The notes: generated by a model not told the origin, from the letters alone. Positions 11,002 through 43,925 are shown, counted from the stretch's first letter. The stretch: 64,000 nt of DNA from Minisyncoccota bacterium (GCA_036405895.1 DASWWS010000001.1:71864-135863); one strand, 5' to 3'. Made by a program: numbers and translations.

Positions 11002-11023
11002 AAAACTGCGCTATACTATATAT

Positions 11024-11704: not shown

Positions 11705-11710
11705 TACATA

Positions 11711-12232
11711 ATGAAAAACCGAGGCTTCACCTTAATAGAGCTCCTTGTTGTTATTGCAGTGATTGGCATTTTAGCATCTGTTGTTTTAGCGAGCTTGAAT
11801 AGTGCTCGCGTTAAGGCTCGTAATGTTCGTCGCAATGCGGACATCCGGGAATTGCAAAGTGCCTTTGCTTTGGCAGCAAGCGATACAGGATCGATGCCGA
11901 GCTCTGCCGGAAACTTTGAGGGGTGGGCATGCGTCAGTGCTACATGCTATCAAGGATGGAGTATATATAGTGCCAACAGCACAGTGGATACCTTTATCGC
12001 AACAACGATGCCGTCAAAACCTATTGACCCTCCGGGCGGTCGCGGATACGGCGGATATTTGTACCATAGTTCATCATTGGGAGCCACTAACTATGATGGA
12101 AGTGTTACCACTGCAGGCCCCGTATTACACTGGCTGTTGGAGCCACCCTACAAAGTTGGGATGTGTGGTGCCGGAAATGCAAACGCTGTAAATTCAAACT
12201 ATGTCGCCTGTGTTATTTCGATAGGAAGATAA
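11711..12232 (+). CDS. Type IV pilin-like protein, paralog 4
   Basis: The same N-terminus plus the WACVSATCYQGWS and PPGGRGYGGYLY blocks shared with paralogs 1 and 2. Confidence 0.8.
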   Translation: MKNRGFTLIELLVVIAVIGILASVVLASLNSARVKARNVRRNADIRELQSAFALAASDTGSMPSSAGNFEGWACVSATCYQGWSIYSANSTVDTFIATTMPSKPIDPPGGRGYGGYLYHSSSLGATNYDGSVTTAGPVLHWLLEPPYKVGMCGAGNANAVNSNYVACVISIGR

Positions 12233-13377: not shown

Positions 13378-13429
13378 GTGTGTCAGTATAGCAGGAAAAG
13401 GATGCGAAACAGCGTGATACAATGAAGCT

Positions 13430-16384: not shown

Positions 16385-16441
16385 AAGGACTATTCGTCAA
16401 CTCGCTCTCACTCTATAAAAATGCTATAATTTGCAGACTAA

Positions 16442-18523
16442 ATGGCAAAATCTGAAGCGGAAAAAAAGAAAGGCGGAAGCTATGGAGCAGACCAAATCTC
16501 AGTCCTTGAAGGACTTGAGCCGGTGCGCCGCCGACCGGGTATGTACATTGGCTCTACAGGGCCGACTGGTCTTCACCACCTTGTATGGGAAATTTTCGAT
16601 AACTCACGCGACGAGGCGATGGGCGGCTTTGCCGACCATGTTGAACTCACCCTTTTGCCGAACAACCAAGTGCGCGTTGTCGACAACGGTCGAGGGATTC
16701 CTGTAGGTATTCATCCAAAAACAAAAGTATCCGCCCTTGAAACGGTGATGACTACGCTTCACGCGGGAGGAAAATTCGGAGGAGATGACTCGGGGTACAA
16801 GGTGTCCGGAGGTCTTCACGGCGTGGGCGCGTCAGTGGTAAATGCGCTCTCTGACTATACGCGCGCAGAAGTGCACAAAGAAGGTGCGGTGTGGGTGCAG
16901 GAATATTCGCAAGGGAATAAAAAGGCTGCGGTAAAGAAAATCGGCACGACAAAAAACAACGGAACGATCATTACTTTCCAGCCGGACCCGACTATTTTTA
17001 AAGAAGGAATCGTGTTTGATTGGAAAACCATCGTCGACCACCTTCGCCAGCAGGCATACCTCGTCAAGAAACTTCGTGTCACTATTATTGATGCTCGAAA
17101 CGTTGAAGAGTCATTTGATGCAACAAAAGCATTTTGGTTTACCGAGCTTGCCATTGAAGCGCCTTCCATTACGTACTACTTTGAAGGAGGGATACAGTCT
17201 ATGGTGCGCCATTACAACCAGCATCAAAAGCCGATCCACGACACCGTATTTTATTGCGAAAAGGATCAGGACAATGTCGGCATTGAAATTGCACTCCAGT
17301 ATGTTGACGATATTTCAGCGCGCATCGTGCCGTTTGCAAACAACATCTACAACCCCGAGCAGGGAACACATGTTACCGGTTTTAAAACAGCGCTTACCCG
17401 TGTGCTCAATACATACGGCAAGAAAAACAACCTCATCAAAGACGCTGACGGCCCGTTTACCGGAGACGACGTTTTGGAGGGCCTCACTGTAGTGATTTCT
17501 GTAAAGCTCGCTGAAATTCAATTTGAAGGACAGACGAAAGCAAAGCTCGGAAGCATGGAAGCACAGGGTGCGACTACCACTGTCTTTGGTGACGCGTTCT
17601 CAACATTTTTGGAAGAGAATCCTGACCAGGCAAAGGCTATCATTATGAAAGGCCTTTTGGCACTGCGTTCACGAAAAGCTGCGAAAGCTGCAAAGGATAA
17701 TATTCTTCGCAAGGGCGCGCTAGAAGGAATGACACTGCCGGGCAAGCTCGCTGACTGCCAGACCAAAGATGCTTCTGAGAGCGAGCTGTTTATCGTTGAG
17801 GGTGACTCTGCTGGCGGTACGGCAAAGATGGGGCGTGACCGCCGTACCCAAGCTATTTTGCCGCTTCGAGGAAAAATCCTTAACGTTGAGCGCGCTCGAC
17901 TCGACCGCATGCTCGGAAGTCAGGAGATTAAGAACCTTGTCATTGCAATGGGGACTTCAATCGGAGACACCTTTGATCTTGAAAAGATGCGCTACCACAA
18001 GATTGTGCTTGCAACGGACGCGGACACTGACGGCGGGCACATCCGCACACTTATCCTCACGCTCTTCTATCGCTACTTCCGAGCAGTGATTGAGGCGGGC
18101 TATGTTTACATTGCGCAGCCGCCACTCTACAAAATCAAAAAAGGGAAAGAGCTTTTTTATGCGTACAACGATACTGAAAAAGAGGCAGTGCTCAAGCAAA
18201 TCGGAGGAGGCGATGTGCCCGAGGTGGTCTTAGAAGAAGGAGAAGAGGCGATGTCTGAAGAAGAGGAGGATGGAGAAGGCGAAGAGACAAAGAAGAAGCG
18301 CGCAACCAAAATCTCTATCCAGCGATACAAAGGTTTGGGTGAAATGAACTCAGACGAATTGTGGGAAACCACCATGGACCCAGCGCGCCGAGTGATGAAG
18401 CAAATCACGATTGACGATGCTGTAGAAGCCGACAATATCTTCGATGTCCTGATGGGCTCAGAAGTTGCTCCGCGAAAGAGCTTCATCCAGGCTAATGCCA
18501 AGCTCGCAAACCTCGATATATAA
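16442..18523 (+). CDS. gyrB: DNA gyrase subunit B (type IIA topoisomerase ATPase subunit)
   Basis: GHKL ATPase motifs (GLHHLVWEIFDNSRDE, GLHGVGASVVNALS). Toprim EGDSAGG. PLRGKILNVE. Acidic insertion near the C-terminus. Confidence 0.85.
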   Translation: MAKSEAEKKKGGSYGADQISVLEGLEPVRRRPGMYIGSTGPTGLHHLVWEIFDNSRDEAMGGFADHVELTLLPNNQVRVVDNGRGIPVGIHPKTKVSALETVMTTLHAGGKFGGDDSGYKVSGGLHGVGASVVNALSDYTRAEVHKEGAVWVQEYSQGNKKAAVKKIGTTKNNGTIITFQPDPTIFKEGIVFDWKTIVDHLRQQAYLVKKLRVTIIDARNVEESFDATKAFWFTELAIEAPSITYYFEGGIQSMVRHYNQHQKPIHDTVFYCEKDQDNVGIEIALQYVDDISARIVPFANNIYNPEQGTHVTGFKTALTRVLNTYGKKNNLIKDADGPFTGDDVLEGLTVVISVKLAEIQFEGQTKAKLGSMEAQGATTTVFGDAFSTFLEENPDQAKAIIMKGLLALRSRKAAKAAKDNILRKGALEGMTLPGKLADCQTKDASESELFIVEGDSAGGTAKMGRDRRTQAILPLRGKILNVERARLDRMLGSQEIKNLVIAMGTSIGDTFDLEKMRYHKIVLATDADTDGGHIRTLILTLFYRYFRAVIEAGYVYIAQPPLYKIKKGKELFYAYNDTEKEAVLKQIGGGDVPEVVLEEGEEAMSEEEEDGEGEETKKKRATKISIQRYKGLGEMNSDELWETTMDPARRVMKQITIDDAVEADNIFDVLMGSEVAPRKSFIQANAKLANLDI

Positions 18524-18748: not shown

Positions 18749-20506
18749 TTATATATCCTTTCGGTTTGTTATTTCGCCGATAATGCGGGTGATGAAATCT
18801 TCAGTTGAAATATTCTCAAGCTTAAGTTCTTTTCTCCCTTCAACGGTAAGGGTATTGCTCTCTATTTCCTTGTTTCCAATGATAATTTGGTAAGGAATTT
18901 TCTCTGTCTTTGCAGAGCGGATGCGTTTGCCGAGGCTGTCGTCCGTAAGAATGGTTGCACGAATGTCGCGCGCGCGAAGCGCTGCAAGAACACCCTGCGC
19001 ATACTCATTGTGAGCTTCCGCTACAGGGATAATCGCAACCGCTGTGGGTGCAAGCCACACAGGGAAGCTTCCTGCAAAGTGTTCAATCATCACGCCCATA
19101 AAGCGCTCAAGCGACCCGCTGATTGCGCGGTGAATCACTACCGGGCGCTCCTTCTCACCTTTTTCGTTGGTAAATGAAAGGTCAAAGCGTTCAGGCAGGT
19201 TAAAGTCGCATTGAATGGTTGCAAGCTGCCACTCGCGTCCGATTGCGTCTTTGAACATAAAGTCGAGCTTTGGTCCGTAAAATGCAGCCTCGTCTTTTGC
19301 GGGAGTATAAGGAAGATTTTCCGCAATACACACTTCAGTAAGTGCGCTCTCTGCCATATTCCATACTTCATCGCCCCCAAGATATTTTGAAGTATCGTCT
19401 CCCCGAAGAGAAAGACGCACCCAGTACCCCTCAATCATGCCCATGGTCGTATAAAATGACTTGATGATAGAGACGATTGTTTTGATTTCTTCCCCAATTT
19501 GCGTTGTGCGGCAGAAGAGGTGTCCGTCATCTTGCGTGATTGAGCGCACACGGGTAAGCCCGCCAAGCTGTCCGGTCTTTTCGTCGCGGTATACAGTAGC
19601 GGGTTCAAAGTAGCGTACCGGCATGTCTCGGTACGAGAATTGGTTGTCCGCAAAGATTTGCATGTGATGCGGACAGTTCATCGGCTTTACATAAAAATCT
19701 TCTTTAGAGCTCCCACCCTTAACGGCGAACATATCGTCCATATAGTGGCCGGCGTGCCCCGATACTTCATAGAGGCTTTCTTTTGCAAGGTGTGGAGTCC
19801 AGACGCGGTCGTACCCTTTGTCTTTGTGCAATTCCCATAAATAGTCTTCTACTGCCTTTCGTACAATCATGCCGTTGGGCTGAAAGAGCGGGAGACCTGC
19901 TCCGACAAGGTCGGAAATGGTAAAGAGCTTTAATTCTTTACCAAGCTTTCGGTGGTCGCGTTTTTTTCCTTCCTCAAGCTGCCACTCATGTTTTGCAAGG
20001 TCTTCTTTTGTGGAGAAGGCGAGACCGTAGATGCGGGTGAGCATAGGATTTTTTTCGCTGCCGCGCCAGTAGGCTCCGGCAACGCGGTCGAGCTTGAAAC
20101 TTTCTGCATCAATAACACTGAGGTCTTCAGTATGTCCGCCTCGACACAGGTCGGTGAAGTTGCCCATTGTGTAGAGAGTAATAACTTCACCCTTTGCGGC
20201 GATTTCATTGATAAGTTCTTCTTTGAATTGATTTCCCTTGAAGTGCTCCAATGCTTCTTCTTTGGTCACCCGCCTGTGGGTAATAGTGGTCCAGGTAGGG
20301 AGGAGTTCGCGCATACGCATTTCAATTGCAGGGAGTTCATTGGTGCCGATGGTGCCCGCAAACTTGATGTCGTAGTAAAAGCCGTCATCAACTGCAGGTC
20401 CGAGCGTGAGCTGTGCGTCAGGATAGAGCTCCATGACCGCAGCACCAAGGAGGTGGGCGAGGGAGTGGCGGGTGTGTTCAATAGTATTGGGATTGGTGTC
20501 AGACAT
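18749..20506 (-). CDS. thrS: Threonyl-tRNA synthetase, apparently lacking the N-terminal TGS domain
   Basis: HTRHSLAHLLGAAVMELYP (editing/SAD domain HxxxH). Class II motifs. The C-terminal anticodon-binding domain ends ...VAIIPV. Start trimmed to MSDTNPN (ATG at 20506), since the upstream 56 aa of the track ORF read through the promoter. Confidence 0.8.
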   Translation of the reverse strand: MSDTNPNTIEHTRHSLAHLLGAAVMELYPDAQLTLGPAVDDGFYYDIKFAGTIGTNELPAIEMRMRELLPTWTTITHRRVTKEEALEHFKGNQFKEELINEIAAKGEVITLYTMGNFTDLCRGGHTEDLSVIDAESFKLDRVAGAYWRGSEKNPMLTRIYGLAFSTKEDLAKHEWQLEEGKKRDHRKLGKELKLFTISDLVGAGLPLFQPNGMIVRKAVEDYLWELHKDKGYDRVWTPHLAKESLYEVSGHAGHYMDDMFAVKGGSSKEDFYVKPMNCPHHMQIFADNQFSYRDMPVRYFEPATVYRDEKTGQLGGLTRVRSITQDDGHLFCRTTQIGEEIKTIVSIIKSFYTTMGMIEGYWVRLSLRGDDTSKYLGGDEVWNMAESALTEVCIAENLPYTPAKDEAAFYGPKLDFMFKDAIGREWQLATIQCDFNLPERFDLSFTNEKGEKERPVVIHRAISGSLERFMGVMIEHFAGSFPVWLAPTAVAIIPVAEAHNEYAQGVLAALRARDIRATILTDDSLGKRIRSAKTEKIPYQIIIGNKEIESNTLTVEGRKELKLENISTEDFITRIIGEITNRKDI

Positions 20507-20540
20507 GAAAAAACTATAGCATTTATATGACTCCTTTGAC

Positions 20541-21500: not shown

Positions 21501-22406
21501 ATGGCAAACCGCCACCTCTCGAGGTCAATTGTTCTTCAATCACTGTTCGAATGGGATTTCTCCGGCCATCCGGAGGAGCTTAAGAGTGTGATTGATCGGG
21601 ACATTGCGGAGTTCGCTCCGGGGCACAACGATACTGCATTTATCTACGAACTCGCGGAGACTGTTCAGCGCAAGCAGACAGTCATCGATGACATCATCAT
21701 GAAGGCCGCTCCCGAGTGGCCGCTCGAAAAAATTTCAAACGTTGACCGCAATGTCCTTCGCATGGGCCTTGCGGAATTATTGTTTGGCGACCGCGAACAG
21801 GTTCCTCCAAAGGTTGCAATCAACGAAGCAATCGAGCTTGCAAAAACATTCGGCGGAGAAAACTCCGGCAAGTTCGTCAACGGCGTACTCGGTGCGGTGT
21901 ATAAAGAGATCGGCGAACCGGGCAAAGATCAGGCAAGCGCACCGCGCGGAAAGAAAGTCGAAGAGCCTGTAGATCCAAGCACGCTTGTTGTGGAAGCAAA
22001 GGCGGGAGGAATCGTGCACGCGCGCCATGACGGCGTGGACTATGTTGCACTTGTCCATGATGTCTTTGGATATTGGACGCTTCCAAAAGGCGGACTTGAA
22101 GAAGGTGAGACAAACGAAATTGCCGGCAAGCGCGAGATTGAAGAGAAGCTTGGTATCGAAGTAGAGCTCGGTCCGGAGATTGGGTCTATTGATTATGTGG
22201 CATCGCATCCTGAAAAAGGGAAGATTCGCAAGGTGGTAACCTTCTATTTGGCGCAAGCACAATACCAAGAACTCGACATGCACTCAAACGGCGGACTTGA
22301 CCGCGCTGCATGGTTCCAGCTGCACGAGGTGGTTGACCTGACGATATATGATGATATATTGCCACTGATTGCGAAAGCAATCGAGCATATTACCAAGAAA
22401 GACTAG
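21501..22406 (+). CDS. nusB: NusB (N-terminal ~140 aa) fused in frame to a NUDIX hydrolase domain
   Basis: The N-terminal VLQSLFEWDFSG...VDRNVLRMGLAELLFGD..VPPKVAINEAIELAKTFGGENSGKFVNGVLGAV is NusB. The C-terminus carries the Nudix box GGLEEGETNEIAGKREIEEKLGI. The reading frame is continuous, with no stop between the two halves. Confidence 0.75.
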   Translation: MANRHLSRSIVLQSLFEWDFSGHPEELKSVIDRDIAEFAPGHNDTAFIYELAETVQRKQTVIDDIIMKAAPEWPLEKISNVDRNVLRMGLAELLFGDREQVPPKVAINEAIELAKTFGGENSGKFVNGVLGAVYKEIGEPGKDQASAPRGKKVEEPVDPSTLVVEAKAGGIVHARHDGVDYVALVHDVFGYWTLPKGGLEEGETNEIAGKREIEEKLGIEVELGPEIGSIDYVASHPEKGKIRKVVTFYLAQAQYQELDMHSNGGLDRAAWFQLHEVVDLTIYDDILPLIAKAIEHITKKD

Positions 22407-23290: not shown

Positions 23291-23315
23291 GTGTGCGTAC
23301 GATATACTATTGTGT

Positions 23316-25592
23316 ATGCGTCTGCAGCACATAGAGATTGCCGGATTCAAGTCGTTTGCTAAAAAGAGCACGCTTGCTTTTACGGCACCTGTGACTGCAG
23401 TGGTGGGGCCGAACGGCTCGGGAAAAAGCAATGTCGTTGAAGCGTTTCGTTTTGTACTCGGCGAGCAGTCAATGAAAAGCATGCGCGGGAAAAGCGGGGC
23501 GGACCTTATTTTCCGCGGAGGCACCGGCACAAGCAAGCTCTCTCGTGCATCAGTTTCTATTACTTTCGACAACTCCGACAAAGTGTTTGCCTTTGCGCCA
23601 AGCAGTACTGAAAGCACTGTGCGCTCACCACTATTGTTTGAGAGCGTAACATTCACGCGCGAGCTTTATGCCGACGGTACGAGCAAGTACTTGATGAATG
23701 GCGCGGAAATTCGCCTCAAGCAAATGGCTGAACTCCTGTCATCGGTGAACATTGGTTCGTCTGGTCACCATATTATTTCGCAAGGGGAAGCTGATGGTAT
23801 TTTGCGCGCGTCCCCGCGCGAACGCCGTGAAATGCTCGAAGATGCGCTCGGACTAAAGATTTACCACTACCGCATCAAGGAAAGTGAGACGAAGCTTGCC
23901 CGTGCACTCGACACCCTTAAAGAAGTGCAGTCACTGCGCCGAGAAATCGTTCCTCATTTGAAATTCTTGGCTAAGCAAGTTGAGAAAGTCGAGAAAGGCC
24001 GTGCTATCCGTGTAGAACTCGAAGGTGCTCTTATACAATATTTGGCAACAGAACGAACACATCTTGGAGAAGAAGACGCACGCATTGGTAGTGCGGAGCA
24101 ATTAATCCGCACGCGCCATGCTGACCTCTCTGCACTGTTGGAAACATTGCCCGAAGAAGGTGCTGTGCACGACACAACTGTAACCGAGCGCGCAATGCTT
24201 TCAAACACCTTAAGAGAAATTCGCGATAAGCGCCGAACACTTGAAAGTCGCATCAGCCGATTGGAGGGAATGCTCGAGGCACACCGACAAATGATTGCAC
24301 GGCAGGCTGCTGTTCCTACAACGAGCGCAAGTATTTCTTTTGCAGCAACTGAATATGGGCAGCTTGTGAGCGATATCGAATTTTTCTTAAGTAATTTGCG
24401 CAGTGCCGAGAGCATTGATGCCGTGCGTGCAACACTTAGCCAGCTTGAAAGCCTGCTTGCTCGGTTGAAGACTCGCGAGAACAAACCTGTTGCGCAGGAA
24501 AATCACAACAGCCTTTCATACGATACGCTGAAAGACACGGCTCTTGAAATGGAAGGATTGCAAAAAGACCTTATCGCACTGTTGGGACAGGAAGATGAAG
24601 TAGTGGCGCGCATCAACACGCTTGAGCTTGCGCGTGAAGCGCTCTTAACCGGCAACCAAGAGAGCACTCGCAAGCGATACGAACTGCAAAGCGATATCCG
24701 CCAATGCGAAGCTGAGCTTCAAATTTTGGCCGTTTCTAAAAGCGCATTTCTTGAGCGCAAAGAATATTTTGATGCAGAGCTCAAGGAAGCAGGCTTTCTT
24801 TTCGGGCCGTCATTTATTCATGCTCTTCAGGCGGCGCAAGCGCTTCCGGAACTGAATTTGCACGACATGAAGCGGAGTATTGACCGCTTGAAGATTCGCC
24901 TTGATGAGCATTCAGGAATAGGTAACGACGTAACGGCAGAATACGAAGCGACAAAAGAGCGCGACGAATTCCTTGCTCGCGAAGTGACCGATATCGAAGC
25001 AAGCATTCGCAACCTCGAGTCGCTCATTATTGATTTGAAAAAGCTCTTGGATGAAAAGTTCACGACAGGGGTGACAGTAATCAACGAGCGCTTTGGAGAA
25101 TTCTTTAAAACAATGTTTGGAGGGGGAAGCGCATTCCTTTCAGTGACTATTGAAAAAAAGCGAAAGAAAAGAACGGACGAATCGCTCGATGATATGGACG
25201 GGGAACCAATGGATGAAAATGATGACCGATTCTTTGAGCGAGGTATTGACGTGCATGTAAATTTGCCGGAGAAAAAGGTGAAAGAGCTTCATATGCTCTC
25301 AGGGGGCGAGCGATCACTTGTTTCTATTGCGCTCCTCTTCGCGATCTCCCAAGTGAACCCACCACCATTTTTAGTGCTCGACGAAACCGATGCAGCACTC
25401 GATGAAGCAAACTCTCGCCGTTATGGAGACATGATAGAACTGTTGGCTGCCTATTCACAACTTATTGTGGTGACCCACAACCGCGAAACGATGTCGCGTG
25501 CAAGCGTGCTCTATGGAGTTACTCTTGGTGCAGACAGCGCTTCAAAACTCCTCTCGATTAAGTTCGATGATGCAGTGAAGGTAGCGAAATAA
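23316..25592 (+). CDS. smc: SMC-family chromosome condensation ATPase, short form (~758 aa)
   Basis: N-terminal head (IEIAGFKSFAKKST..VVGPNGSGKSNVVEAF). Long coiled-coil middle. C-terminal LSGGERSLVSIALLFAI signature and Walker B (FLVLDETDAALDE). It sits directly after rnc, as in the conserved rnc-smc(-ftsY) arrangement. ATG at 23316; the track ORF starts at TTG 23289. Confidence 0.7.
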   Translation: MRLQHIEIAGFKSFAKKSTLAFTAPVTAVVGPNGSGKSNVVEAFRFVLGEQSMKSMRGKSGADLIFRGGTGTSKLSRASVSITFDNSDKVFAFAPSSTESTVRSPLLFESVTFTRELYADGTSKYLMNGAEIRLKQMAELLSSVNIGSSGHHIISQGEADGILRASPRERREMLEDALGLKIYHYRIKESETKLARALDTLKEVQSLRREIVPHLKFLAKQVEKVEKGRAIRVELEGALIQYLATERTHLGEEDARIGSAEQLIRTRHADLSALLETLPEEGAVHDTTVTERAMLSNTLREIRDKRRTLESRISRLEGMLEAHRQMIARQAAVPTTSASISFAATEYGQLVSDIEFFLSNLRSAESIDAVRATLSQLESLLARLKTRENKPVAQENHNSLSYDTLKDTALEMEGLQKDLIALLGQEDEVVARINTLELAREALLTGNQESTRKRYELQSDIRQCEAELQILAVSKSAFLERKEYFDAELKEAGFLFGPSFIHALQAAQALPELNLHDMKRSIDRLKIRLDEHSGIGNDVTAEYEATKERDEFLAREVTDIEASIRNLESLIIDLKKLLDEKFTTGVTVINERFGEFFKTMFGGGSAFLSVTIEKKRKKRTDESLDDMDGEPMDENDDRFFERGIDVHVNLPEKKVKELHMLSGGERSLVSIALLFAISQVNPPPFLVLDETDAALDEANSRRYGDMIELLAAYSQLIVVTHNRETMSRASVLYGVTLGADSASKLLSIKFDDAVKVAK

Positions 25593-28259: not shown

Positions 28260-28287
28260 TTGACTTTGATTTTCAGGTGTATATAAT
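28260..28287 (+). promoter_or_regulatory. Sigma70-like promoter upstream of the 16S rRNA gene (TTGACT, 16 bp spacer, TATAAT)
   Basis: ttgactttgattttcaggtgtatataat lies ~190 bp upstream of the mature 16S 5' end. Confidence 0.5.
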
Positions 28288-28479
28288 AGGGGTCGCTCTG
28301 GAGATAGGGCTGTGTTGTTTGAAAATCTATTGTTAAGAATTAAAATGAACGCAAATATCTATTAAAGAAACCTAACTATTCCAAGTTAATTAAGTAAGGA
28401 GGCAAGCATACGGAGATTCGGAAATACCAATTTTCTCTTGCCTCAGTCTAAGATGTAGTTTTAAACTTATCTTTTAAGA

Positions 28480-30189
<1,710 letters not shown>

Positions 30190-30395
30190 CAAATTGAGAT
30201 GTTTTCTCATTGTCCCTCGTGGATGGTGATAAGATTGATACGGTTGAACCGGCGCAAGTCGGAAAAAGGTTGTGGTATGTGACTTAATACATACTCCCTG
30301 TGCAAGGGTTAGAGCACAAAAATCCTCTCGTACGTATCTATAGAGCGTATGAGCGGTAGACTGAGGCAAAAGAAAGTTGATATACTTTACTGGTA

Positions 30396-30869
30396 ATGGC
30401 ATTCATTCAAAACAATAGATTTTTTATACTACTAGGAATTGCACTCCTTTCATTAGGGGTGCTTTTTCTATTGTTGGGCCAGGGCACCCGTACTATAGTG
30501 CCCGGCTTTACTGATGGCACCCTGGTGAGCGGCAGTACCCGCATAGCGGTAAGCATTGCCGACAGCGAGTCTGAGCGCGTGCAGGGCTTATCCAATACCG
30601 ATCCGCTGCCGAAAGGTGTGGGCAAGTTTTTTATCTTCGATACGCCTGAAATGCATGGGTTTTGGATGAAGGATATGCGCTATGCAATAGATATTATATG
30701 GCTTGATGCGCAGATGAGGGTTGTTTCAATAAAAACGGGCGCCGCCCCTGAAAGCTATCCAGAAACATTCTACCCAAGCGCTGAATCTCTCTACGTACTC
30801 GAGGTGCCGTCCGGGTTTTCCACAGCAAAGAGCATTGAAGTGGGGCAAACGTTCACACTTCTGAAATAA
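30396..30869 (+). CDS. DUF192 (COG1430) family secreted protein
   Basis: N-terminal TM/signal. GLSNTDPLPKGVGKFFIFD...GFWMKDMRYAIDIIWLD...YVLEVPSGF matches the DUF192 pattern. Confidence 0.6.
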   Translation: MAFIQNNRFFILLGIALLSLGVLFLLLGQGTRTIVPGFTDGTLVSGSTRIAVSIADSESERVQGLSNTDPLPKGVGKFFIFDTPEMHGFWMKDMRYAIDIIWLDAQMRVVSIKTGAAPESYPETFYPSAESLYVLEVPSGFSTAKSIEVGQTFTLLK

Positions 30870-31053
30870 TTTATTTCGCCCCCGATTGGCCGCTGGTCAG
30901 AGAGATTGATGTATAACACTCTCTGGACAGAAGTCTTTACAAGAAAAAATTTTTATATCATTGCGCCAAAAAATGGAACAGAACTTCGTTGTTATCCTCG
31001 TATTTTTGTATACTATACGAAGTTTTAATTAATAGGTAAGCGGGGGAAACGAG

Positions 31054-32325
31054 GTGGCAATTACACTCATCAAGAAAAGAAGTGGCTCTATTACTGATTT
31101 TGATCGGTCTCGTATTGAGGTCGCAATAACCCGCGCTTATGAAGCGTCTAAGATGTTTATCGACATCGTATCCCTCTCCGAACTGGTCGATAAAATCGTT
31201 GCAGTACTTGAGGAAACCTACAATGAGCACAATATTCCGGAAGTTGAAGACATCCAAAACGTTGTCGAAAAAGAAATTGCATTGAAAGGGGATTTCGAGG
31301 TTGCAAAAGCTTATGTATTGTACCGAGAGGAAAGGAATCAAGAGCGAAAACGCGATATCTTCAAAAAAAGAGTGCATCTCAAGCCCTATGAATACCCAGA
31401 ACTCTATGAATACGTAAGCGCTGTTCGCCATTCGTACTGGATTCATACAGAGTTTAACTTTGTCAGCGACGTACAGGACTTTCAGGTAAATGTGGACGAG
31501 AAAGAGCGAAATGTCATCAAAAACGCAATGCTTGCCATTGCGCAAATAGAAGTCACCATCAAAACATTTTGGGGGGATATTTATAAGCGCCTGCCAAAGC
31601 CTGAGATCGGGGCAGTGGGAGCAACATTTGCAGAAAGCGAAGTGCGCCACACGGACGCCTATGCCCACCTTTTGGAAATTTTAGGACTCAATGAAGTATT
31701 CAAGACAATTGATGAGATACCGGCCCTGATGAAGCGGGTGAACTATTTGGAAAAATCCTTGGCAAATGCCCGCAGTGAAGATAATCGAGAATATAGTCAA
31801 TCAATATTACTCTTCTCGTTGTTTATAGAGCATGTGTCACTCTTCTCCCAGTTCCTTATCATGATGTCCTTTAATAAAAATAAGAATTTGTTCAAAGGCA
31901 TATCAAACGCTGTTGAGGCCACCTCGAAAGAAGAGCAAATTCACGGATTGTTTGGGATCGAGATCATCAACATCATCAAAACCGAGCATCCGGAATGGTT
32001 TGATGCAGAGTTTGAAGAGAGTGTGGTGAAACTATGCGAGGAAGCGTTTGAGTCGGAAACGGCTGTCGTAGAATGGATTTTTGAAAAAGGAGAGCTCGAA
32101 TTCATTTCAAAGGAAGTTGTTCTTGAATTTATTAAGACCCGCTTCAACAACTCGCTGCAAAGTATCGGTATTGCCAAGATATTCACCACGAATGAAGCCC
32201 TGGTGAAGGAATCAGAATGGTTTTATGACGAAGTAATCGCCACCAAGCACGGAGACTTCTTCAATAAAAAGTCGATCAACTACAACAAAAAAAGCAAGAG
32301 TATAACGAGCGATGACCTCTTTTAG
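31054..32325 (+). CDS. nrdB: Class I ribonucleotide reductase small (radical-generating) subunit with an N-terminal ATP-cone
   Basis: The N-terminal LIKKRSGSITDFDRSRIEVAITRAYE is an ATP-cone. Ferritin-like diiron ligands follow: ESEVRHTDAY (E-x2-H plus Tyr at H+4), EEQIHGLFG (E-x2-H) and FELSHxxxx-type helices. Confidence 0.8.
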   Translation: MAITLIKKRSGSITDFDRSRIEVAITRAYEASKMFIDIVSLSELVDKIVAVLEETYNEHNIPEVEDIQNVVEKEIALKGDFEVAKAYVLYREERNQERKRDIFKKRVHLKPYEYPELYEYVSAVRHSYWIHTEFNFVSDVQDFQVNVDEKERNVIKNAMLAIAQIEVTIKTFWGDIYKRLPKPEIGAVGATFAESEVRHTDAYAHLLEILGLNEVFKTIDEIPALMKRVNYLEKSLANARSEDNREYSQSILLFSLFIEHVSLFSQFLIMMSFNKNKNLFKGISNAVEATSKEEQIHGLFGIEIINIIKTEHPEWFDAEFEESVVKLCEEAFESETAVVEWIFEKGELEFISKEVVLEFIKTRFNNSLQSIGIAKIFTTNEALVKESEWFYDEVIATKHGDFFNKKSINYNKKSKSITSDDLF

Positions 32326-32346
32326 CAGACTAAATAAACAACAGAC

Positions 32347-34074
32347 ATGTATTGGTTAAATGAAAACAGCAGAAAATTTTTATCAAAAGGCTACCTTGTA
32401 GGAAACATTACTGCAGAGGAGCGTATTCGCGAAATCGCAGAGATTGCAGAGAAGTATCTTCAGAAGCCCGGTTTTGCCGATAAGTTCTACGACTACATGT
32501 CTCGAGGGTTCTACTCGCTCGCAAGCCCTATTTGGTCTAACTACGGCCAGACCCGCGGGCTTCCCATCAGCTGTTTTGGGAGCTACGTCGGAGATGACAT
32601 GTCTCGAATTCTCTACACCCATGCCGAAGTTGGCATGATGACAAAAAACGGCGGCGGCACGTCCGTGTATCTTGGAGCACTTCGCCCTCGCGGAGCGGTG
32701 ATTAAAGACAATGGGCACTCATCAGGCTCAGTGCACTTTTTGGAACTCTTCGACAATCTCATTAATATTGTTTCGCAAGGCACCGTTCGCCGCGGGCACT
32801 GCGCACCGTATTTACCCGTTGAGCATGGCGATATCGAAGAATATTTGAACATTGGAACAGAAGGCCACCCAATTCAGGAATCAACCTACGCTGTTACTGT
32901 GGGCGATGCATGGCTTAAGGCTATGGTGGATGGCGACCAGGACAAGCGAAAGATCTGGGCAAAGATTATCCAGCGCCGTACTGAAATTGGCTACCCGTAC
33001 ATTCTTTTCAGTGATACCGTGAATAACAACACTGTGGACGTCTACAAGGACAAGGGAATGAAAATCAACAACAGCAACCTTTGTTCCGAAATCTGCCTTC
33101 CGACTGCAGACGATATCTCATTCGTTTGCTGCCTCTCTTCCATGAATGTTCGCCATTACCACGAATGGAAGGACACTGATGCGGTTGAAGTCTTGACCAT
33201 GTTCCTCGATACAGTTATCTCAGACTTTGCTGCGCGCCTCGAAAGCTTCCGCGACAGTGAGGACCCTCAAAAGCAGTCAGCGTTCTACTTTATGCAACGC
33301 GCGCACAAGTTTGCTGTAGAGCATCGCGCTTTGGGTCTTGGCGTACTCGGTTGGCACACCTTCCTTCAGGAAAGCAATATTGCATTTGAAAGCCCTGAAG
33401 CAACTGCGCTCAACGAAGAGATTTTCAAGCTTATCAAAGAAAAGGCATACAAGGCATCCGAAGATATGGCAAAAGAATACGGCGAGCCTGAAGTATTGAA
33501 AGGCTATGGCCGCCGCAATACAACGCTCTTGGCCGTTGCGCCGACCACTTCTTCTGCATTTATTCTCGGGCAGGTATCTCAAAGTATCGAACCGTTGATG
33601 TCCAACTGTTTTGTAAAAGATGTCGATAAGATGAAGGTGACTATCAAAAACCAGACCCTTGAAGCATTGCTTGAAGAGAAGGGGCAGAATACTGCAGAAG
33701 TATGGGGTAATATTCGCGATAATGATGGATCGGTTCAACACCTCGACTTCCTGACAGCTCATGAAAAAGAAGTGTTTAGAACATTTAGTGAAATCGACCA
33801 GAAGGCAATTGTGGACCAGGCAGCAGACCGCCAAAAGTACATTGATCAGGCTCAGTCATTAAACATCATGATTGACCCGGCGATTTCTACAAAAGAACTC
33901 AATGCTCTGTATCTGTATGCATGGGAGAAAGGAATCAAAACCCTCTATTACCAGCACAGCATGAATGCTGCTCAGCAGTTTGGGCGAAAGAAGCTTCAGG
34001 AGAATGCAGAAGCAAAAAAGCCAAAAGTGATTTTTGTCGGCGAAGACAACATGTGCGTTAACTGCGAAGCATAA
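32347..34074 (+). CDS. nrdA: Class I ribonucleotide reductase large subunit, short form without an ATP-cone
   Basis: NLCSEI active-site Cys-Glu loop. The ten-stranded barrel GYPYILF and CCLSSMN motifs. C-terminal Cys pair (CVNCEA). 575 aa. Confidence 0.8.
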   Translation: MYWLNENSRKFLSKGYLVGNITAEERIREIAEIAEKYLQKPGFADKFYDYMSRGFYSLASPIWSNYGQTRGLPISCFGSYVGDDMSRILYTHAEVGMMTKNGGGTSVYLGALRPRGAVIKDNGHSSGSVHFLELFDNLINIVSQGTVRRGHCAPYLPVEHGDIEEYLNIGTEGHPIQESTYAVTVGDAWLKAMVDGDQDKRKIWAKIIQRRTEIGYPYILFSDTVNNNTVDVYKDKGMKINNSNLCSEICLPTADDISFVCCLSSMNVRHYHEWKDTDAVEVLTMFLDTVISDFAARLESFRDSEDPQKQSAFYFMQRAHKFAVEHRALGLGVLGWHTFLQESNIAFESPEATALNEEIFKLIKEKAYKASEDMAKEYGEPEVLKGYGRRNTTLLAVAPTTSSAFILGQVSQSIEPLMSNCFVKDVDKMKVTIKNQTLEALLEEKGQNTAEVWGNIRDNDGSVQHLDFLTAHEKEVFRTFSEIDQKAIVDQAADRQKYIDQAQSLNIMIDPAISTKELNALYLYAWEKGIKTLYYQHSMNAAQQFGRKKLQENAEAKKPKVIFVGEDNMCVNCEA

Positions 34075-34123: not shown

Positions 34124-34463
34124 GAGGGGTTGTACCGCTCGATCGCTCTTGATTCAGTAATTGAGTCAGGGGAGGAAAGTCCGAACACACAACGATTCAA
34201 TTCGTACAGGTAGCGGGTAATTCCCGTCTGGCGCAAGCCACGAGGTGCGAACAGAGACGCCCGCGCAGAAATGCAAAGGATTCCTCCTCTCTTGTAGATG
34301 AGGAATAGCTCCTTTGGTAACAAAGGAGTTGAAACGGCTAAATCCTTACTTGTGTGCAAGGCCGTGCCCCGCAAAGCCGGGGAGTGCTGCTAGAGGGAGT
34401 TGGCAACAACTCTCCCAGATAAATGATCGATAGAACAGAATTCGGCTTACGAGTACAACACAT
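34124..34463 (+). ncRNA. rnpB: RNase P RNA (bacterial type A-like)
   Basis: GGAGGAAAGTCCGAACAC (P4 5' strand). ACAGGTAGCGGGTAATTCCCG. The CAGAAATGC...ACAGAATTCGGCTTA P4 3' strand near the 3' end. P1 pairing GTTGTAC/GTACAAC. Followed by the hairpin aaaaaacatcctgaaacggatgtttttt. Confidence 0.75.
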
Positions 34464-34496
34464 GAAAAAACATCCTGAAACGGATGTTTTTTCTTA

Positions 34497-36252: not shown

Positions 36253-36367
36253 TCTTTTTCTTACTCACTCTCTTTCCACTTACACAAAACCGCGACAACA
36301 AGGCCGCGGTTTTGTGCTATTGGGGCATCTTTTAAAGAGGGTGTTTTTGTGGTAAAATCATGTTCTT

Positions 36368-38689
36368 ATGGCATTCACATTTCTTCAGGGGCTCTTCGAT
36401 AAGGGGGCAATAAAGCAATACGAAAAAAGGGTAAAAAACATCAATGATTTGGAGGAATCAGTTGCCGCTTTGGGCGACCAGGACTTTCCCAATGAAACTG
36501 CAGCTCTCAAAGCCCGCCTCACGGCTGGAGAGTCGCTCGACGATATCTTGCCTCGCGCATTTGCGCTTGTTCGAGAAGCCGCAAAGAGGACTTCAGGCAA
36601 ACGCCACTATGACGTGCAGCTGATTGGAGGAATGGTCCTCAATGGAGGCAATATCGCCGAGATGCGAACAGGTGAAGGGAAGACATTGGTAGGAACGCTC
36701 CCAGTGTATTTAAATGCGCTTACAGGGCGCGGGGTGCACGTAGTAACCGTCAACGACTACCTTGCTCGCCGTGACGCGACATGGATGGGGCAAATCTATA
36801 ACTTTCTTGGCCTTTCTATTGGCGTTATCAACGACCAGTCAAAATCATTTGTATACGACCCGACACATCAAGAACTCGATGAAGAGCGCGATGAAGAAGG
36901 GTCATTTAAAGTGGTGCAGCAATTTTTGCGCCCGGTGAGCCGCCGCGATGCCTATGCCGCCGACATCACGTACGGGACGAACAGCCAGTTCGGCTTTGAC
37001 TACCTGCGCGACAACCTTGTCAGCAACAAGAGCGATATTGTGCAGCGAGGACACTACTTCGCCGTTGTCGACGAAGTGGACTCTATCTTGATTGATGAAT
37101 CCCGCACACCGCTTATTATTTCAAGTGCGGTTGCGGATTCTGCAGCCCTCTATAAAACCGTCGCCGGAGTCGCGACTAAGCTTGTTGTAGGGACCGATTA
37201 TACTGTGGACGAAAAGCTCAAGGCCATTCAGTTGACCGATGAAGGAATCACCAAGGCTGAAAAAATGCTCGGCATTACGGACATGTATACCGAAAAGGGT
37301 ATCAAGTACGTGCACTATCTCGAAACTGCCATCCGTGCCCGCGCACTGTTTGTAAAAGACAAAGACTATGTAATTAAAGACGGAGAGGTAATTATTGTGG
37401 ACCCCTTTACTGGGCGCATGCAGCCGGGCCGACGATGGTCTGAGGGCTTGCACCAGGCAATTGAGGCAAAAGAAGGAGTAAAGATTGAGCAGGAAACCCG
37501 TTCGATTGCTTCTATTACGTACCAAAACTATTTTAAATTCTACGAAAAGCTCTCGGGTATGACCGGTACCGCAAAAACCAGCGAAGAGGAATTCACCAAG
37601 GTGTACGGCCTTTCAGTTGTCTCCGTACCGACCCACCGAAAGACGCAGCGTATCGACCACAACGACCTCATCTTCCAGACTGAAGAAGGAAAGTTCAAAG
37701 CGATAGCGAGAAAAGTAAAAGAGCTCCACGAAAAAGGACAGCCAGTGCTGATCGGTACAGTCTCTGTTGAGAAAAACGAACTCTTGGGGGCGTATTTGAA
37801 ACGCGAAGGCATTCCGCATCAAATCCTTAATGCGAAAAACCATGAACAAGAAGGAACGGTGACTGCGCAAGCGGGCCGCAAAGGCTCTGTAGTGATTGCT
37901 ACGAACATGGCTGGCCGCGGAGTGGATATTATCCTCGGCGGTAACCCATCAACCCCGGAAGAGCAGGAAGAAGTGAAGTCTCTCGGAGGATTGTTCGTTA
38001 TCGGTACCGAACGCCATGAAGCGCGCCGAATCGACAACCAGCTTCGCGGACGCGCTGGTCGTCAGGGCGACCCGGGCGAAACGCAGTTTTACGTTTCTCT
38101 TGAGGATGAATTGATGCGCGTATTCGGAAGCGAACGCATCAAGACCATGATGACGCGCCTTGGCTTGCCTGAAGATGAAGCGATTCAAAACGGCATCGTG
38201 TCGCGCGCCCTTGAAAGCGCTCAGAAAAAAATCGAAGGCTTCCACTTTGATGCCCGCAAGCACACGCTTGAATACGACACCATTCTTTCGTACCAGCGAG
38301 AACAGGTCTACGGCCGCCGCCGCGCGATGGTGGAAGGGGACCGCGGACATGTGATCAGCACATTCTATACCTTGGGTGAGCAAGGAAATCTTGAGGCAAT
38401 CGTAAAAGAAAAGACCGAGCTCGTAGGGGAAGATGCATTTTGGGAGAATGTCCGACGCGTCATCCTCTTTACTACCGACACACTGTGGGTAGAACACATC
38501 GACACCATGGAATACCTTCGCCAGTCGGTTGGGCTTCGGGCATACGGGCAGCGCGAACCGCTTGTTGAATACAAAAAAGAGTCAACTCGACTCTTTAAGG
38601 AGATGGAAGAGCGCCTGAAAGACCAAGTAATTAGCCTTGCCAGCGGGATTACCAAACTCACAGCGGGAGTAAGCGACAAAGCTCAGTAA
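36368..38689 (+). CDS. secA: Preprotein translocase ATPase SecA (short form lacking the C-terminal Zn-finger tail)
   Basis: MAFTFLQGLFDKG... and the DEAD-like motor motifs (MRTGEGKTLV, VDEVDSILIDE, TNMAGRGVDI). 773 aa. Confidence 0.9.
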   Translation: MAFTFLQGLFDKGAIKQYEKRVKNINDLEESVAALGDQDFPNETAALKARLTAGESLDDILPRAFALVREAAKRTSGKRHYDVQLIGGMVLNGGNIAEMRTGEGKTLVGTLPVYLNALTGRGVHVVTVNDYLARRDATWMGQIYNFLGLSIGVINDQSKSFVYDPTHQELDEERDEEGSFKVVQQFLRPVSRRDAYAADITYGTNSQFGFDYLRDNLVSNKSDIVQRGHYFAVVDEVDSILIDESRTPLIISSAVADSAALYKTVAGVATKLVVGTDYTVDEKLKAIQLTDEGITKAEKMLGITDMYTEKGIKYVHYLETAIRARALFVKDKDYVIKDGEVIIVDPFTGRMQPGRRWSEGLHQAIEAKEGVKIEQETRSIASITYQNYFKFYEKLSGMTGTAKTSEEEFTKVYGLSVVSVPTHRKTQRIDHNDLIFQTEEGKFKAIARKVKELHEKGQPVLIGTVSVEKNELLGAYLKREGIPHQILNAKNHEQEGTVTAQAGRKGSVVIATNMAGRGVDIILGGNPSTPEEQEEVKSLGGLFVIGTERHEARRIDNQLRGRAGRQGDPGETQFYVSLEDELMRVFGSERIKTMMTRLGLPEDEAIQNGIVSRALESAQKKIEGFHFDARKHTLEYDTILSYQREQVYGRRRAMVEGDRGHVISTFYTLGEQGNLEAIVKEKTELVGEDAFWENVRRVILFTTDTLWVEHIDTMEYLRQSVGLRAYGQREPLVEYKKESTRLFKEMEERLKDQVISLASGITKLTAGVSDKAQ

Positions 38690-43000: not shown

Positions 43001-43259
43001 GGTAGCGCTTCGAGTCTATTCCCGGTTCTTTGTCAAAACGCGTACGCTCGGCAATGTACGCTTCAACGCCGATAATCGGCTTGATGTCGGCTTTTTTGCA
43101 GGCATTGTAAAACTCAATCGCGCCGTACATGGCGCCGTGGTCGGTCAGCGCAAGCGCCGGCATGCCAAACTCTTTCGCTTTTTTTACGAGCTGAGGAATT
43201 TTCGAGAGCCCGTCGAGCAGCGAGTAGTGGGAGTGGGTGTGGAGGTGGACGAAGCTCAT
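40029..43259 (-). CDS. dnaE: DNA polymerase III alpha subunit
   Basis: PHP domain MSFVHLHTHSHYSLLDGLSKI... Polymerase core motifs (GRGSAAGSLVSY, NPLRPGIPDIDLD). OB fold at the C-terminus. Start trimmed to the ATG at 43259. Confidence 0.9.
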   Translation of the reverse strand: MSFVHLHTHSHYSLLDGLSKIPQLVKKAKEFGMPALALTDHGAMYGAIEFYNACKKADIKPIIGVEAYIAERTRFDKEPGIDSKRYHLTLLVKNNAGYKNMMKLVTKSNLEGFYYKPRMDMELLREHGDGIICLSGCPGSRFITHLKNGNREEAEKLLLEYIDIFGKENVYVEVMYHKEVDWYIPLVPAIIEIAQKMDLPVVATWDSHYINKEDADAQDTLVAINTGTEVGNSKISMKAGNYSFISPDEAKEIFKDIPGAIENTVKLAETIDLEIELAPWKFPTYPIPEGSNYDDELRAGVLAGLPDIGYTYDGIIKERVDFELDIIKNKGFSSYFLVEADLVQAARRMGIQTNTRGSAAGSLVSYAMRITTVDPIKYKLPFERFLNPLRPGIPDIDLDIADDRRDDLINYIREQYGAMAVAQICTFGTMAARGSVRDVARALGYPYAVGDKISKMIPMGSQGFPMTIDHALEIIPELKEEYDNDRGTKEIIDMAKKIEGNVRHISVHAAGVIIAPTPDVSDYTPIQYDPKGETKIITQYDMFSGGRDGVVNLPKFDMLGIRNLQFISGTLDRIKKIYGIEIDIDTIPLDDKKVFEMLARGETMGVFQMAGDGMTRYLKELKPSKLEDLMAMVALYRPGPMEVIPEYIRRKENPRLIKYPDPRLKDDLEASYGLLVYQDDVLITSIRLAGYTWLDADKFRKAMGKKIPAEMAEQKEKFYKGCMEYGGLGVEKIDELWHLIEPFAAYGFNKAHAASYGMVAYKTAYLKANYPAEYLSACMTAESGDIETCSEYINEAKRMGFTILPPDVNESFSDFTVVVEEGVVTKKIRFGLRNVKNFGEEIGKAIIAERKANGRFKTIEDFLERVQHKNMNKKSLEALIMCGAMDAFGERGVLCANIEVLLAFHKGLKTHNGAAQDSLFAGLDSNPTATLTLRDAPDAPIAQKLIWEKELLGLYISGHPLDSFLEKIQKAGTTIKKLLNEPPVPARERFTKKKQSYLLVAHIDTAKVIMTKATSLKMAFLSLTDKTGTIEGVVFPETFKTIGPLIREGAIAAMKCTVADREERRSVLIDDIKILS

Positions 43260-43310
43260 ACTGACACTAGTATAGCAGTGGAGAGATTCGTTTGTTATAT
43301 TGACATACAT

Positions 43311-43925
43311 ATGACAAACAAGCCCAAAAAGCCCCTGTGGGTGATAGGGATAGATGAAGTGGGACGCGGGCCGCTTGCTGGCCCTGTTACGGTGTGCGCG
43401 GTTGCAGTGCCGTATAGGGGGTATAGTGCGAGCTTGTGGCCCGGACTCACCGACTCTAAAAAAATGACCGCACCCGCTCGAGCGAAGTGGTATAAAGAGG
43501 CTCTCCGGCTTGAGCGCTCCGGAATATTGCGCTACGCGCTTTCAAGCAGAAGCGCACAAACGATTGATACCAAAGGAATAGCGCCGTGCATCCGCGAGTG
43601 CATTGTGAGTATTTTGAAAAAAATCGCATTGCCACCCGAAGAGTGTCTGGTGCTCCTCGACGGGGGACTAAAGGCTCCGGCCCAATACGCTTTTCAGCAA
43701 ACGATTATTAAAGGCGACAGCAAAGAACCTGTTATTTCGTACGCCTCGGTCATCGCAAAAGTTCATCGCGATATGTATATGACCAAGGCGCACCGCAAAA
43801 ATCCCGAATACGGATGGGACAAAAACAAGGGGTACGGCACGCAGGACCACCAAAATACCCTTATAATACAAGGTGTAACAGCACTTCACCGCAAGAGTTT
43901 TCTTCGCCGCATACTTGACAAATAG
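43311..43925 (+). CDS. rnhB: Ribonuclease HII
   Basis: VIGIDEVGRGPLAGPVTVCAV signature. Divergent from dnaE, with a 51-bp gap. ATG at 43311. Confidence 0.85.
   Translation: MTNKPKKPLWVIGIDEVGRGPLAGPVTVCAVAVPYRGYSASLWPGLTDSKKMTAPARAKWYKEALRLERSGILRYALSSRSAQTIDTKGIAPCIRECIVSILKKIALPPEECLVLLDGGLKAPAQYAFQQTIIKGDSKEPVISYASVIAKVHRDMYMTKAHRKNPEYGWDKNKGYGTQDHQNTLIIQGVTALHRKSFLRRILDK

Follow-up and report, generated by a model that had tools for sequence, protein, structure and literature searches.

We analyzed the 3' end of a 16S rRNA gene, and the start codons of the protein-coding genes around it, in a stretch of 64,000 nucleotides (nt) of DNA from a Minisyncoccota bacterium (GCA_036405895.1, DASWWS010000001.1:71864-135863); this whole stretch is called the window below. 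Pairing between the Shine-Dalgarno (SD) motif of an mRNA and the anti-SD at the 16S 3' end is the textbook mode of bacterial start selection, and few rRNA sequences are as highly conserved as the anti-SD. The original prediction, made from the sequence of the window alone, held that this 16S rRNA has a degenerate anti-SD and that most starts in the window are SD-less. The following elements make up the 3' end in question.

28473-30194, plus strand: 16S rRNA gene (Rfam RF00177, 1355.8 bits against a gathering score of 50; model positions 1-1533, full length)
30158-30181, plus strand: helix 45, with CACGGCUAGC at 30158-30167, the GGAA loop at 30168-30171 and GCUGGUCGUG at 30172-30181, from the covariance-model alignment
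30182-30194, plus strand: 3' tail GAUUAACUCAAAU, where the consensus is GAUCACCUCCUUU, from the Rfam 3' alignment

The gene is 1722 nt long, and its excess over the 1533-position model is due mainly to a lineage-specific insertion of about 217 nt. Helix 45 is intact. Following it, the gene ends in GGAUUAACUCAAAU where the consensus reads GGAUCACCUCCUUU; a full-length match to RF00177 is thus combined with the absence of the tail expected after helix 45, GAUCACCUCCUUU. Aligned by column, the anti-SD core CCUCC is ACUCA in the window (30187-30191), with two of the five core positions altered, both from C to A. Alignment to the Rfam consensus shows changes from C to U and from UUU to AAA in the flanks of the core. 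The CCUCC core had been predicted to be replaced by AACUC: the replacement is confirmed, but that reading is set one base too far to the left. CCTCC is absent from the whole of 30150-30420, an interval that includes about 220 nt past the 16S end, in agreement with the earlier statement that the following 200 nt hold no such motif. The nearest 5-mers with one mismatch in this interval are CCTCG at 30215, ACTCC at 30293 and CCTCT at 30324. A displaced anti-SD was also sought downstream and rejected: removing the 41 nt that separate two copies of TCGTGGAT (30177 and 30218) still yields no CCUCC.

Could the altered tail be an artefact or belong to a nonfunctional copy, whether through mis-assembly, because the gene is a pseudogene, or because a second 16S gene with a canonical anti-SD lies elsewhere? 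The visible part of the genome is limited to 64 kb, and rRNA regions assembled from metagenomes are error-prone. However, three independent Logan assemblies (SRR11449182/86/87; L001-L003) have one and the same sequence from helix 45 through the gene downstream, and hence the tail is not an assembly error. The same tail is present in three other species and in eight metagenome contigs among the matches listed in the scans below, and published surveys report the same loss across Parcubacteria. The gene itself is full length, has all its helices, and is accompanied by a promoter and a processing stem.

28260-28287, plus strand: rRNA promoter of the sigma-70 type, TTGACT-N16-TATAAT, by direct reading of the sequence
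28424-28450, plus strand: leader arm of the pre-16S processing stem, a 27-nt inverted repeat 89% complementary to 30357-30383
30357-30383, plus strand: trailer arm of the processing stem, pairing with 28424-28450

With these features the 16S gene is functional-looking. The promoter indicates that the organism uses canonical -35 and -10 boxes, and the position of the trailer arm means that the precursor reaches at least about 190 nt past helix 45. The gene is unlinked from 23S and 5S genes, and no 23S gene lies downstream; what follows is a DUF192 gene (ATG at 30396), nrdB, nrdA and then RNase P RNA (34127-34465). We consider an artefact very improbable and conclude that the anti-SD has been lost from this 16S rRNA.

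Judged by its sequence matches, the host is an uncultured, ultra-small member of the Paceibacteria/Parcubacteria (OD1), within the Patescibacteria, or candidate phyla radiation (CPR). Its GyrB (16442-18523) is 100% identical to a protein encoded on a 363-kb contig of a 'Candidatus Paceibacterota' metagenome-assembled genome (MAG), and further GyrB matches carry the names Minisyncoccia, Pacebacteria, Nomurabacteria and Patescibacteria group. The nearest 16S among the matches listed, which come from species-representative genomes, is that of a Nomurabacteria MAG (L072), at 92.5% identity.

We scanned one genome per species with the pattern AAGTCGTAACAAGGCA-N8-GGAA-N8-TGGAT, the 'GGCA' form of helix 45 (at least 120 loci), and scanned metagenomes with the helix 45 of the window plus the first tail bases GGATTAA (at least 120 contigs). 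All counts from these scans, here and below, are among the matches listed. CCTCC was present at 67 of 120 genome loci and absent from 53. Lineage names were taken from informative record titles, and placeholder-like titles ('uncultured Gammaproteobacteria', 'Saccharibacteria' co-assembly bins) were not used for taxonomy. By these names, the anti-SD is kept in Magasanik-, Falkow-, Uhr-, Kerfeld-, Moran-, Doudna-, Yanofsky- and Portnoybacteria and lost from Nomura-, Kaiser-, Taylor-, Lloyd-, Jorgensen-, Lipton-, Nealson- and Staskawiczbacteria. Minisyncoccus archaeiphilus PMX.108 (L114, NZ_AP038758.1), the only cultured representative among the matches listed, also lacks the anti-SD and has the tail GGAUCAUUUAUUUAUA. 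Its AU-rich tail class (GGAUCAUUUAUUUAUAUUUUGAAAG) resembles what we take to be the eukaryotic 18S end, GGAUCAUUA. The exact helix 45 of the window was found at 14 genome loci, all 14 of them without an anti-SD. The comparison with related genomes that had been proposed as a check showed that the variant tail is common to relatives: the exact tail of the window recurs in L023, L032 and L072 and in the eight metagenome contigs.

Loss of the anti-SD across about half of the Parcubacteria has been published (PMC9297842; PMC10783764), with the motif detected in only 48% of them (Tsurumaki et al. 2022, PMC9297842). The organism of the window has the properties of anti-SD-lacking, SD-scarce prokaryotes (class iv of PMC10783764; the Parcubacteria subgroup of PMC9297842), namely no CCUCC, as checked against sequencing error, a lineage-typical variant and few SD/anti-SD interactions. 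With the Parcubacteria subgroup it shares the lack of CCUCC after helix 45, a variant tail in related species, scarce SD motifs and its placement. Nanopusillus, insect endosymbionts and many Flavobacteriia are named beside Parcubacteria as lacking the anti-SD. At the group level the loss is already known, and this genome adds one more member. The published Parcubacteria surveys record the absence of the motif, not its replacement, and mention neither the leaderless geometry nor the tail-trailer hairpin described below; new here are a proposed explanation by leaderless mRNAs and reinitiation, and a hairpin that covaries.

If the ribosome has no anti-SD, do the mRNAs have SD motifs? We counted motifs at -20 to -1 in a greedy set of 51 open reading frames (ORFs). 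GGAGG or AGGAG lies upstream of none of the 51 genes, and GGAG or GAGG lies upstream of one, against about three expected from random window positions. For further analysis, starts were refined by Pfam domain offsets and orthologue gene calls. Several longest-ORF starts in the window are off by 17-57 codons; the longest-ORF and first-ATG sets dilute start-linked signals and were kept for unbiased statistics. ATG makes up 96% of the refined starts analyzed, the choice of starts having itself favored ATG. At 46 refined starts (-25 to -1), the duplex energy with the canonical tail averaged -2.90 kcal/mol, against -4.12 at random window positions. Pairing is thus weaker than at random, and SD motifs at starts are, if anything, depleted. 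Only in the group that keeps the anti-SD are SD-like 4-mers enriched upstream, about twofold (18% against 8%, among the matches listed). The absence of GGAGG-like motifs from most starts thus stands, and it extends to the four genes first cited as examples, secA, gyrB, pyk and dnaE. The longest-ORF starts that the original prediction probably used were wrong for dnaE (43310), thrS (20674) and pyk; the corrected starts (43259, 20506 and 62462, respectively) are SD-less as well.

A new SD might have co-evolved with the new tail, such that GAUUAACUCAAAU pairs with a purine-poor upstream motif (category iii of PMC10783764). Conservation of the tail among species at 92% 16S identity speaks for this possibility. 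However, duplexes with the actual tail averaged -2.29 kcal/mol at the 46 starts and -2.64 at random positions, and the fraction at or below -4.5 kcal/mol was 0.13 at starts and 0.15 at random. The 5-mers enriched upstream are -10 boxes, none of them complementary to the tail, and it is with the trailer, not with mRNAs, that the variable stem positions in the tail covary. We find an alternative SD hardly credible. With no anti-SD, SD motifs not enriched, no motif that pairs with the new tail, and the tail conserved, the sequence data support largely SD-independent start selection, as had been suggested.

What marks the starts in place of an SD? The top enriched 5-mers at -20 to -1 are ATAAT, TATAA, CTATA, TATAC and ATACT, all of which are -10 promoter boxes, and the dominant upstream signal is the extended -10 box TGnTAnnnT, 6-12 nt before the ATG. 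In the first-ATG set, 13% of window genes have a TANNNT that ends exactly 6 nt upstream of the ATG, compared with about 3% for other offsets; the signal is a sharp peak at 6-7 nt with no plateau. TANNNT ends 6-8 nt before the ATG in 10 of 48 window genes (background 9.6%, p=0.015), in 35 of 137 genes of the closest anti-SD-less relatives (p=8e-9) and in 23 of 99 genes of a second anti-SD-less group (p=1e-5). An annotation-free test gave 16 of 104 TGNTANNNT sites in the window with an ATG that opens at least 100 codons at 5-12 nt; six such ATGs lie at 6 nt, four at 7 nt and four at 9 nt, and the control distance bins hold 1, 5 and 3. Of 47 refined starts, 12 are preceded at 5-12 nt by an extended -10 box (binomial p=2e-16).

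In sigma-70 promoters, the spacing from the -10 hexamer to +1 is 6 nt. A hexamer separated by 6 nt from the A of the ATG matches this distance, so the mRNA would start at the AUG; spacings of 9 and 11-12 nt predict leaders of 2-6 nt, too short for an SD. We infer transcription start sites from this geometry at the N6-N7 starts of LemA (1543), a pilin gene (3793) and a DUF2975 gene (60235) and at the following genes.

13415-13432, plus strand: putative leaderless start of an AddA/UvrD-like helicase gene, TGaTACAAT-gaagct-ATG (N6; start 13430)
16422-16444, plus strand: gyrB start, TGcTATAAT-N11-ATG, with an implied leader of about 4-5 nt, too short for an SD
20504-20521, minus strand: putative leaderless start of thrS, TGcTATAGT-N6-ATG (start 20506, not 20674)
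23303-23318, plus strand: putative leaderless start of smc, TATACT-N7-ATG (start 23316; in the longest ORF, the Pfam SMC_N domain starts at residue 12)
36350-36370, plus strand: secA start, TGgTAAAAT-N9-ATG, with an implied leader of about 2-3 nt
43257-43313: divergent pair of dnaE (ATG 43259, minus strand) and rnhB (ATG 43311, plus strand), each with TGnTATAnT-N9, 51-nt gap

For footprinting we used two syntenic relatives that had been retrieved via their GyrB proteins, L124 (GyrB 85% identity) and L125 (96%). Seven genes retain both box and distance next to a diverged spacer. These are AddA/UvrD (L124 TGcTAAAAT-actctt-ATG; L125 TGaTACAAT-agagat-ATG), thrS (L124 TGgTATAGT-N7, L125 TGcTATAGT-N6; orthologues of 581-582 amino acids [aa]), smc (L124 TGaTATACT-N7, L125 TGgTATACT-N6), gyrB (L124 TGcTATAAT-N12, L125 TGcTATACT-N11), LemA and L32 (kept in L124), and the metallophosphatase (kept in L125), whose start was corrected to 13377 by the orthologue comparison. 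A conserved box position next to a diverging spacer implies leaderless or near-leaderless mRNAs. The window thus displays the signature of such mRNAs: a -10 element at a fixed distance of about 6-8 nt before starts, above background, with the geometry kept in orthologues. Three of the four genes first cited as examples fit this arrangement (secA and dnaE with N9, gyrB with N11); pyk (start 62462) is without a well-placed box. The PHP domain begins at residue 22 of the longest dnaE ORF, and 43259 is most likely the dnaE start. The adjacent rnhB gene (RNase HII, motif IGIDEVGRGPLAGPV) is unannotated, and the longest-ORF dnaE start at 43310 would leave a gap of zero to it.

Perhaps the -10-like boxes are only AT-rich intergenic DNA, and initiation occurs on leadered mRNAs as in Bacteroidia, through an unstructured, A-rich, Kozak-like context and bS1? 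The upstream regions are indeed A/T-rich and G-poor (7-15% G at -13 to -1), and about a dozen genes are without a well-placed -10 box; such a mode probably operates there. Against it as the general mode, the TANNNT peak is sharp at 6-7 nt, the more specific TGNTANNNT has the same spacing, and box and distance are conserved while the spacer diverges. Moreover, A is not enriched at -3 (0.28). The 'SD-blind' ribosomes of Flavobacterium johnsoniae and other Bacteroidia translate mRNAs that naturally lack an SD, and most Bacteroidia keep CCUCC, which is sequestered by bS21, bS18 and bS6 and used in rpsU autoregulation (PMC6847099, PMC13000453). The window shares with Bacteroidia the SD-free mRNAs and, probably, a role of the 16S tail in rRNA maturation apart from mRNA binding. 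It differs in that the anti-SD itself is absent, not retained and sequestered, and in that it shows general A/T richness but no Kozak-like A at -3. We regard Bacteroidia-like initiation as an unlikely account of the window as a whole.

Several genes of the window follow closely upon another gene. Eleven same-strand stop-start junctions have gaps of at most 6 nt, of -17, -13, -4, -4, -1, 0, 1, 2, 3, 5 and 6 nt.

3016, 7305, 8617, 9726, 10513, 11711, 25596 and 50296, plus strand: junction starts (9726-9729 is an example of an ATGA overlap)
45410, 46093 and 46575, minus strand: junction starts, gap of at most 6 nt

The short stop-start distances noted earlier are therefore real, with 1, 2, 3 and 5 nt among the eleven. 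The junctions include ATGA and TAATG overlaps, in which the stop overlaps or adjoins the downstream start, as in translational coupling, and the overlapping or at most 6-nt junctions fit termination-reinitiation. In SD-using bacteria, coupling is usually aided by an SD within the upstream gene. The junctions of the window are like those of termination-reinitiation in bacteria and archaea in their ATGA and TAATG overlaps and gaps of 0-6 nt; they differ from coupling in SD-using bacteria in that no SD can be used, so that reinitiation here would be SD-free.

We propose that leaderless or near-leaderless mRNAs, together with reinitiation, are probably the main mode of translation initiation in the organism of the window. 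A single, unlinked 16S gene without an anti-SD would leave start codons to be chosen without SD pairing. Promoters of the sigma-70 type, often those with the extended -10 box TGnTAnnnT, would serve the first genes of transcription units. Their -10 hexamer ends 6-9 nt, and in occasional cases 11-12 nt, upstream of the ATG, which would put the mRNA 5' end directly at the AUG or no more than about 5 nt away. Leaderless mRNAs in other bacteria are recognized directly by a ribosome that carries initiator tRNA, and the leaderless messages of the window would likewise be taken up directly by an initiator-tRNA-loaded ribosome. Operon-internal genes would be translated by termination-reinitiation at junctions that overlap or are at most 6 nt apart, and the remaining genes would probably rely on G-poor, A/U-rich, unstructured upstream regions.

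Several observations weigh against this proposal. TANNNT also ends 6-8 nt before the ATG in 50 of 296 genes (16.9% against 9.5%) of anti-SD-keeping Patescibacteria, a weaker signal than in the anti-SD-less groups; hence, leaderless transcription alone does not explain the loss in this clade. The unbiased p value of the window by itself (0.015) is modest, and the strong values need pooled relatives or refined starts, some of which, for example 49049, were chosen with attention to the -10 box. Both a well-placed -10 box and a coupled junction are missing from about a dozen genes, among them pyk, nrdA, nrdB, a DAO oxidoreductase gene and two genes for very large surface proteins; their initiation mode is unexplained. 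Finally, the leaderless case rests wholly on sequence geometry.

In the anti-SD-keeping Patescibacteria among the matches listed (L004-L123), the TANNNT peak lies 6 nt before the ATG (10.5% against about 3%). Leaderless usage may predate the loss of the anti-SD in the phylum.

Deinococcus deserti and Mycobacterium keep a canonical anti-SD, and SD-led initiation serves their leadered genes. Leaderless-rich bacteria also have a strong preference for AUG as start codon. The window is like them in its -10 box at a fixed short distance and lack of an SD; it differs in that the anti-SD is gone, leaving no SD route, and in that its leaderless mRNAs are predicted from sequence. About 60% of Deinococcus deserti mRNAs are leaderless (PMC4007540), Mycobacterium is leaderless-rich (PMC3898074, PMC4633059), and an in silico leaderless signature has been described (Zheng et al. 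2011, PMC3160421). Our literature search found no paper that links leaderless translation to Patescibacteria, CPR or Parcubacteria, or to the loss of the anti-SD there.

If the tail no longer pairs with mRNAs, what keeps it constant among species? The remnant of the core lies in a small hairpin with the trailer.

30188-30198, plus strand: tail-trailer mini-hairpin CUC(A)-AAU-(U)GAG, with the anti-SD core remnant as its 5' strand

In the group of the window, whose tails start with GGAUU, a triplet located 3-7 nt further downstream is complementary to tail positions 8-10 and pairs with them, and the stem types covary in relatives: CUC/GAG (window), UUC/GAA, UCC/GGA and GUC/GAC. The hairpin is present in 18 of 31 unique tails of the anti-SD-less group of the window among the matches listed, and the UCC/GGA type, placed one base further, adds more. 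As controls, chimeric tails with a swapped triplet gave 5%, and shuffles gave a mean of 5.1 of 31 with a maximum of 13. All 81 unique tails listed from the metagenome scan have the hairpin (UCC/GGA in 40, UUC/GAA in 28 and CUC/GAG in 10), with varying loops. Formal pair counting found 77% of cells paired against 70.8 +/- 1.5 in shuffles (0 of 500 as high), best at slide 0, and a covariation score of 0.31 against 0.23 (0 of 500). MAFFT left differing loop lengths ungapped, so the formal count understates pairing, and we prefer the register-aware counts with their chimera and shuffle controls. Among the anti-SD keepers, the CUCC of the anti-SD pairs with a trailer GGAG in the same register in 47 of 64 tails listed. 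None of the 120 metagenome contigs listed ends within 60 nt of the tail. Because the tail retains a hairpin that covaries with the trailer, its sequence is not random decay. A covarying tail-trailer hairpin was not found in our literature search of papers on these bacteria.

We infer from the sequence that the hairpin is probably an element of pre-rRNA folding or 3'-end maturation. Without an mRNA partner, CCUCC would have decayed to ACUCA, with tail positions 8-10 held by pairing with the trailer in the same hairpin that CCUCC and the downstream GGAG form in anti-SD keepers. In Flavobacterium, ablation of the anti-SD impairs pre-16S processing independently of translation, possibly via contacts with Era or YbeY (PMC13000453), and an ancestral hairpin that stays under selection after mRNA binding is lost fits that result. 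In anti-SD-lacking, SD-scarce prokaryotes, loss of uL1 is an accompanying trait, with Der and mostly Era also lost in Paceibacteria. Paceibacteria were found in a 2025 study to be without rplA and der and mostly without era (PMC12641178); the genes for uL1, Der and Era are not within the 64-kb window, which is a genome fragment, so that genomic absence is not implied. The hairpin is only 3-4 bp long, and a palindrome acting at the DNA level would produce the same pattern; both points count against this reading.

Perhaps the hairpin is instead kept in the mature 16S rRNA, as a terminal mini-helix that mimics in cis the SD/anti-SD duplex in the platform cleft? In the four species that share the tail of the window, conservation runs through both hairpin strands (...CUCAAAUUGAGAU) to ...UUGAGAU and then gives way immediately to divergence, as such a helix would predict. 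The usual bacterial mature 16S end is ...CCUCCUUU, however, and the homologous GGAG strand in relatives with a canonical tail lies past that end; the Rfam model, too, ends inside the loop. In favor of a mimic, Parcubacteria show unusual conservation of h26, the element in contact with the SD helix (Tsurumaki et al., PMC9297842). A mature end at ...AACUCAAA(U) would mean that the hairpin exists only in the precursor, and an end after ...UUGAGAU would mean a new terminal helix. We think a mature mini-helix improbable and favor the maturation element.

Past the tail hairpin (30199-30249) lies a trailer hairpin with a sequence wholly different among L072, L023, L032 and the window, followed by a conserved UUGAUACGGUUGA (30237-30249 in the window). 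More distant relatives have a GUCGAU motif 40-70 nt downstream of the 16S gene. The DUF192 gene has a promoter (TGaTATACT-N9-ATG at 30396) that overlaps the trailer arm of the processing stem (30357-30383). Scanning the trailer and the spacer between DUF192 and nrdB (30150-31100) against Rfam by E-value gave nothing past the 16S end.

The 16S insertion (about 29618-29835) consists of three successive near-perfect hairpins of about 62 nt (29631-29694, 29696-29755 and 29758-29815) closed by the stem 29615-29634/29818-29837. It is skipped in the 16S of most relatives, and a homologous insertion was found only in the closest relative, L072 (Nomurabacteria), among the matches listed. Downstream, nrdB (423 aa; nrdB-nrdA region 31054-34074) has an N-terminal ATP-cone and precedes nrdA; its GTG start has a G-rich stretch upstream (gcgggggaaacgag) and is among few such starts. 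The RNase P RNA is of bacterial class A and scores 116.4 bits, barely above the gathering threshold of 100, which suggests a reduced or divergent structure.

Elsewhere in the window, NusB is fused to a C-terminal NUDIX hydrolase (21501-22406), and the fusion is present in both syntenic relatives (L124 14853-15773; L125 15013-15918). At 3016-12232, four type IV pilin-like genes with the N-terminal methylation motif are interleaved with genes for large secreted proteins that have Ig, fibronectin type III, cohesin and dockerin domains; one protein encoded there, of 970 aa, contains a Peptidase_S74 domain, an intramolecular chaperone of a type known from phage tailspikes. This cluster probably encodes cell-surface attachment machinery.

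A bolder extension, which we hold to be rather doubtful, is that Paceibacteria are a whole class without an anti-SD, in which expression would proceed essentially only via leaderless mRNAs and SD-free reinitiation. The former anti-SD would then have taken on a new function, as one of the two strands of a terminal hairpin that covaries. This hairpin would be either a 3'-maturation signal that is obligatory and has survived the loss of Era and of the SD or, in the mature rRNA, an in-cis mimic of the SD duplex. The loss of the anti-SD in a free-standing lineage, neither an organelle nor an insect endosymbiont, reveals which functions of the 16S tail are dispensable. Use of leaderless mRNAs and reinitiation, if true, would matter for gene calling in Patescibacteria MAGs and for heterologous expression of their genes. 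The tail hairpin would separate a role of the 16S 3' end in maturation from its role in mRNA binding, the same separation that was recently inferred experimentally in Flavobacterium (PMC13000453).

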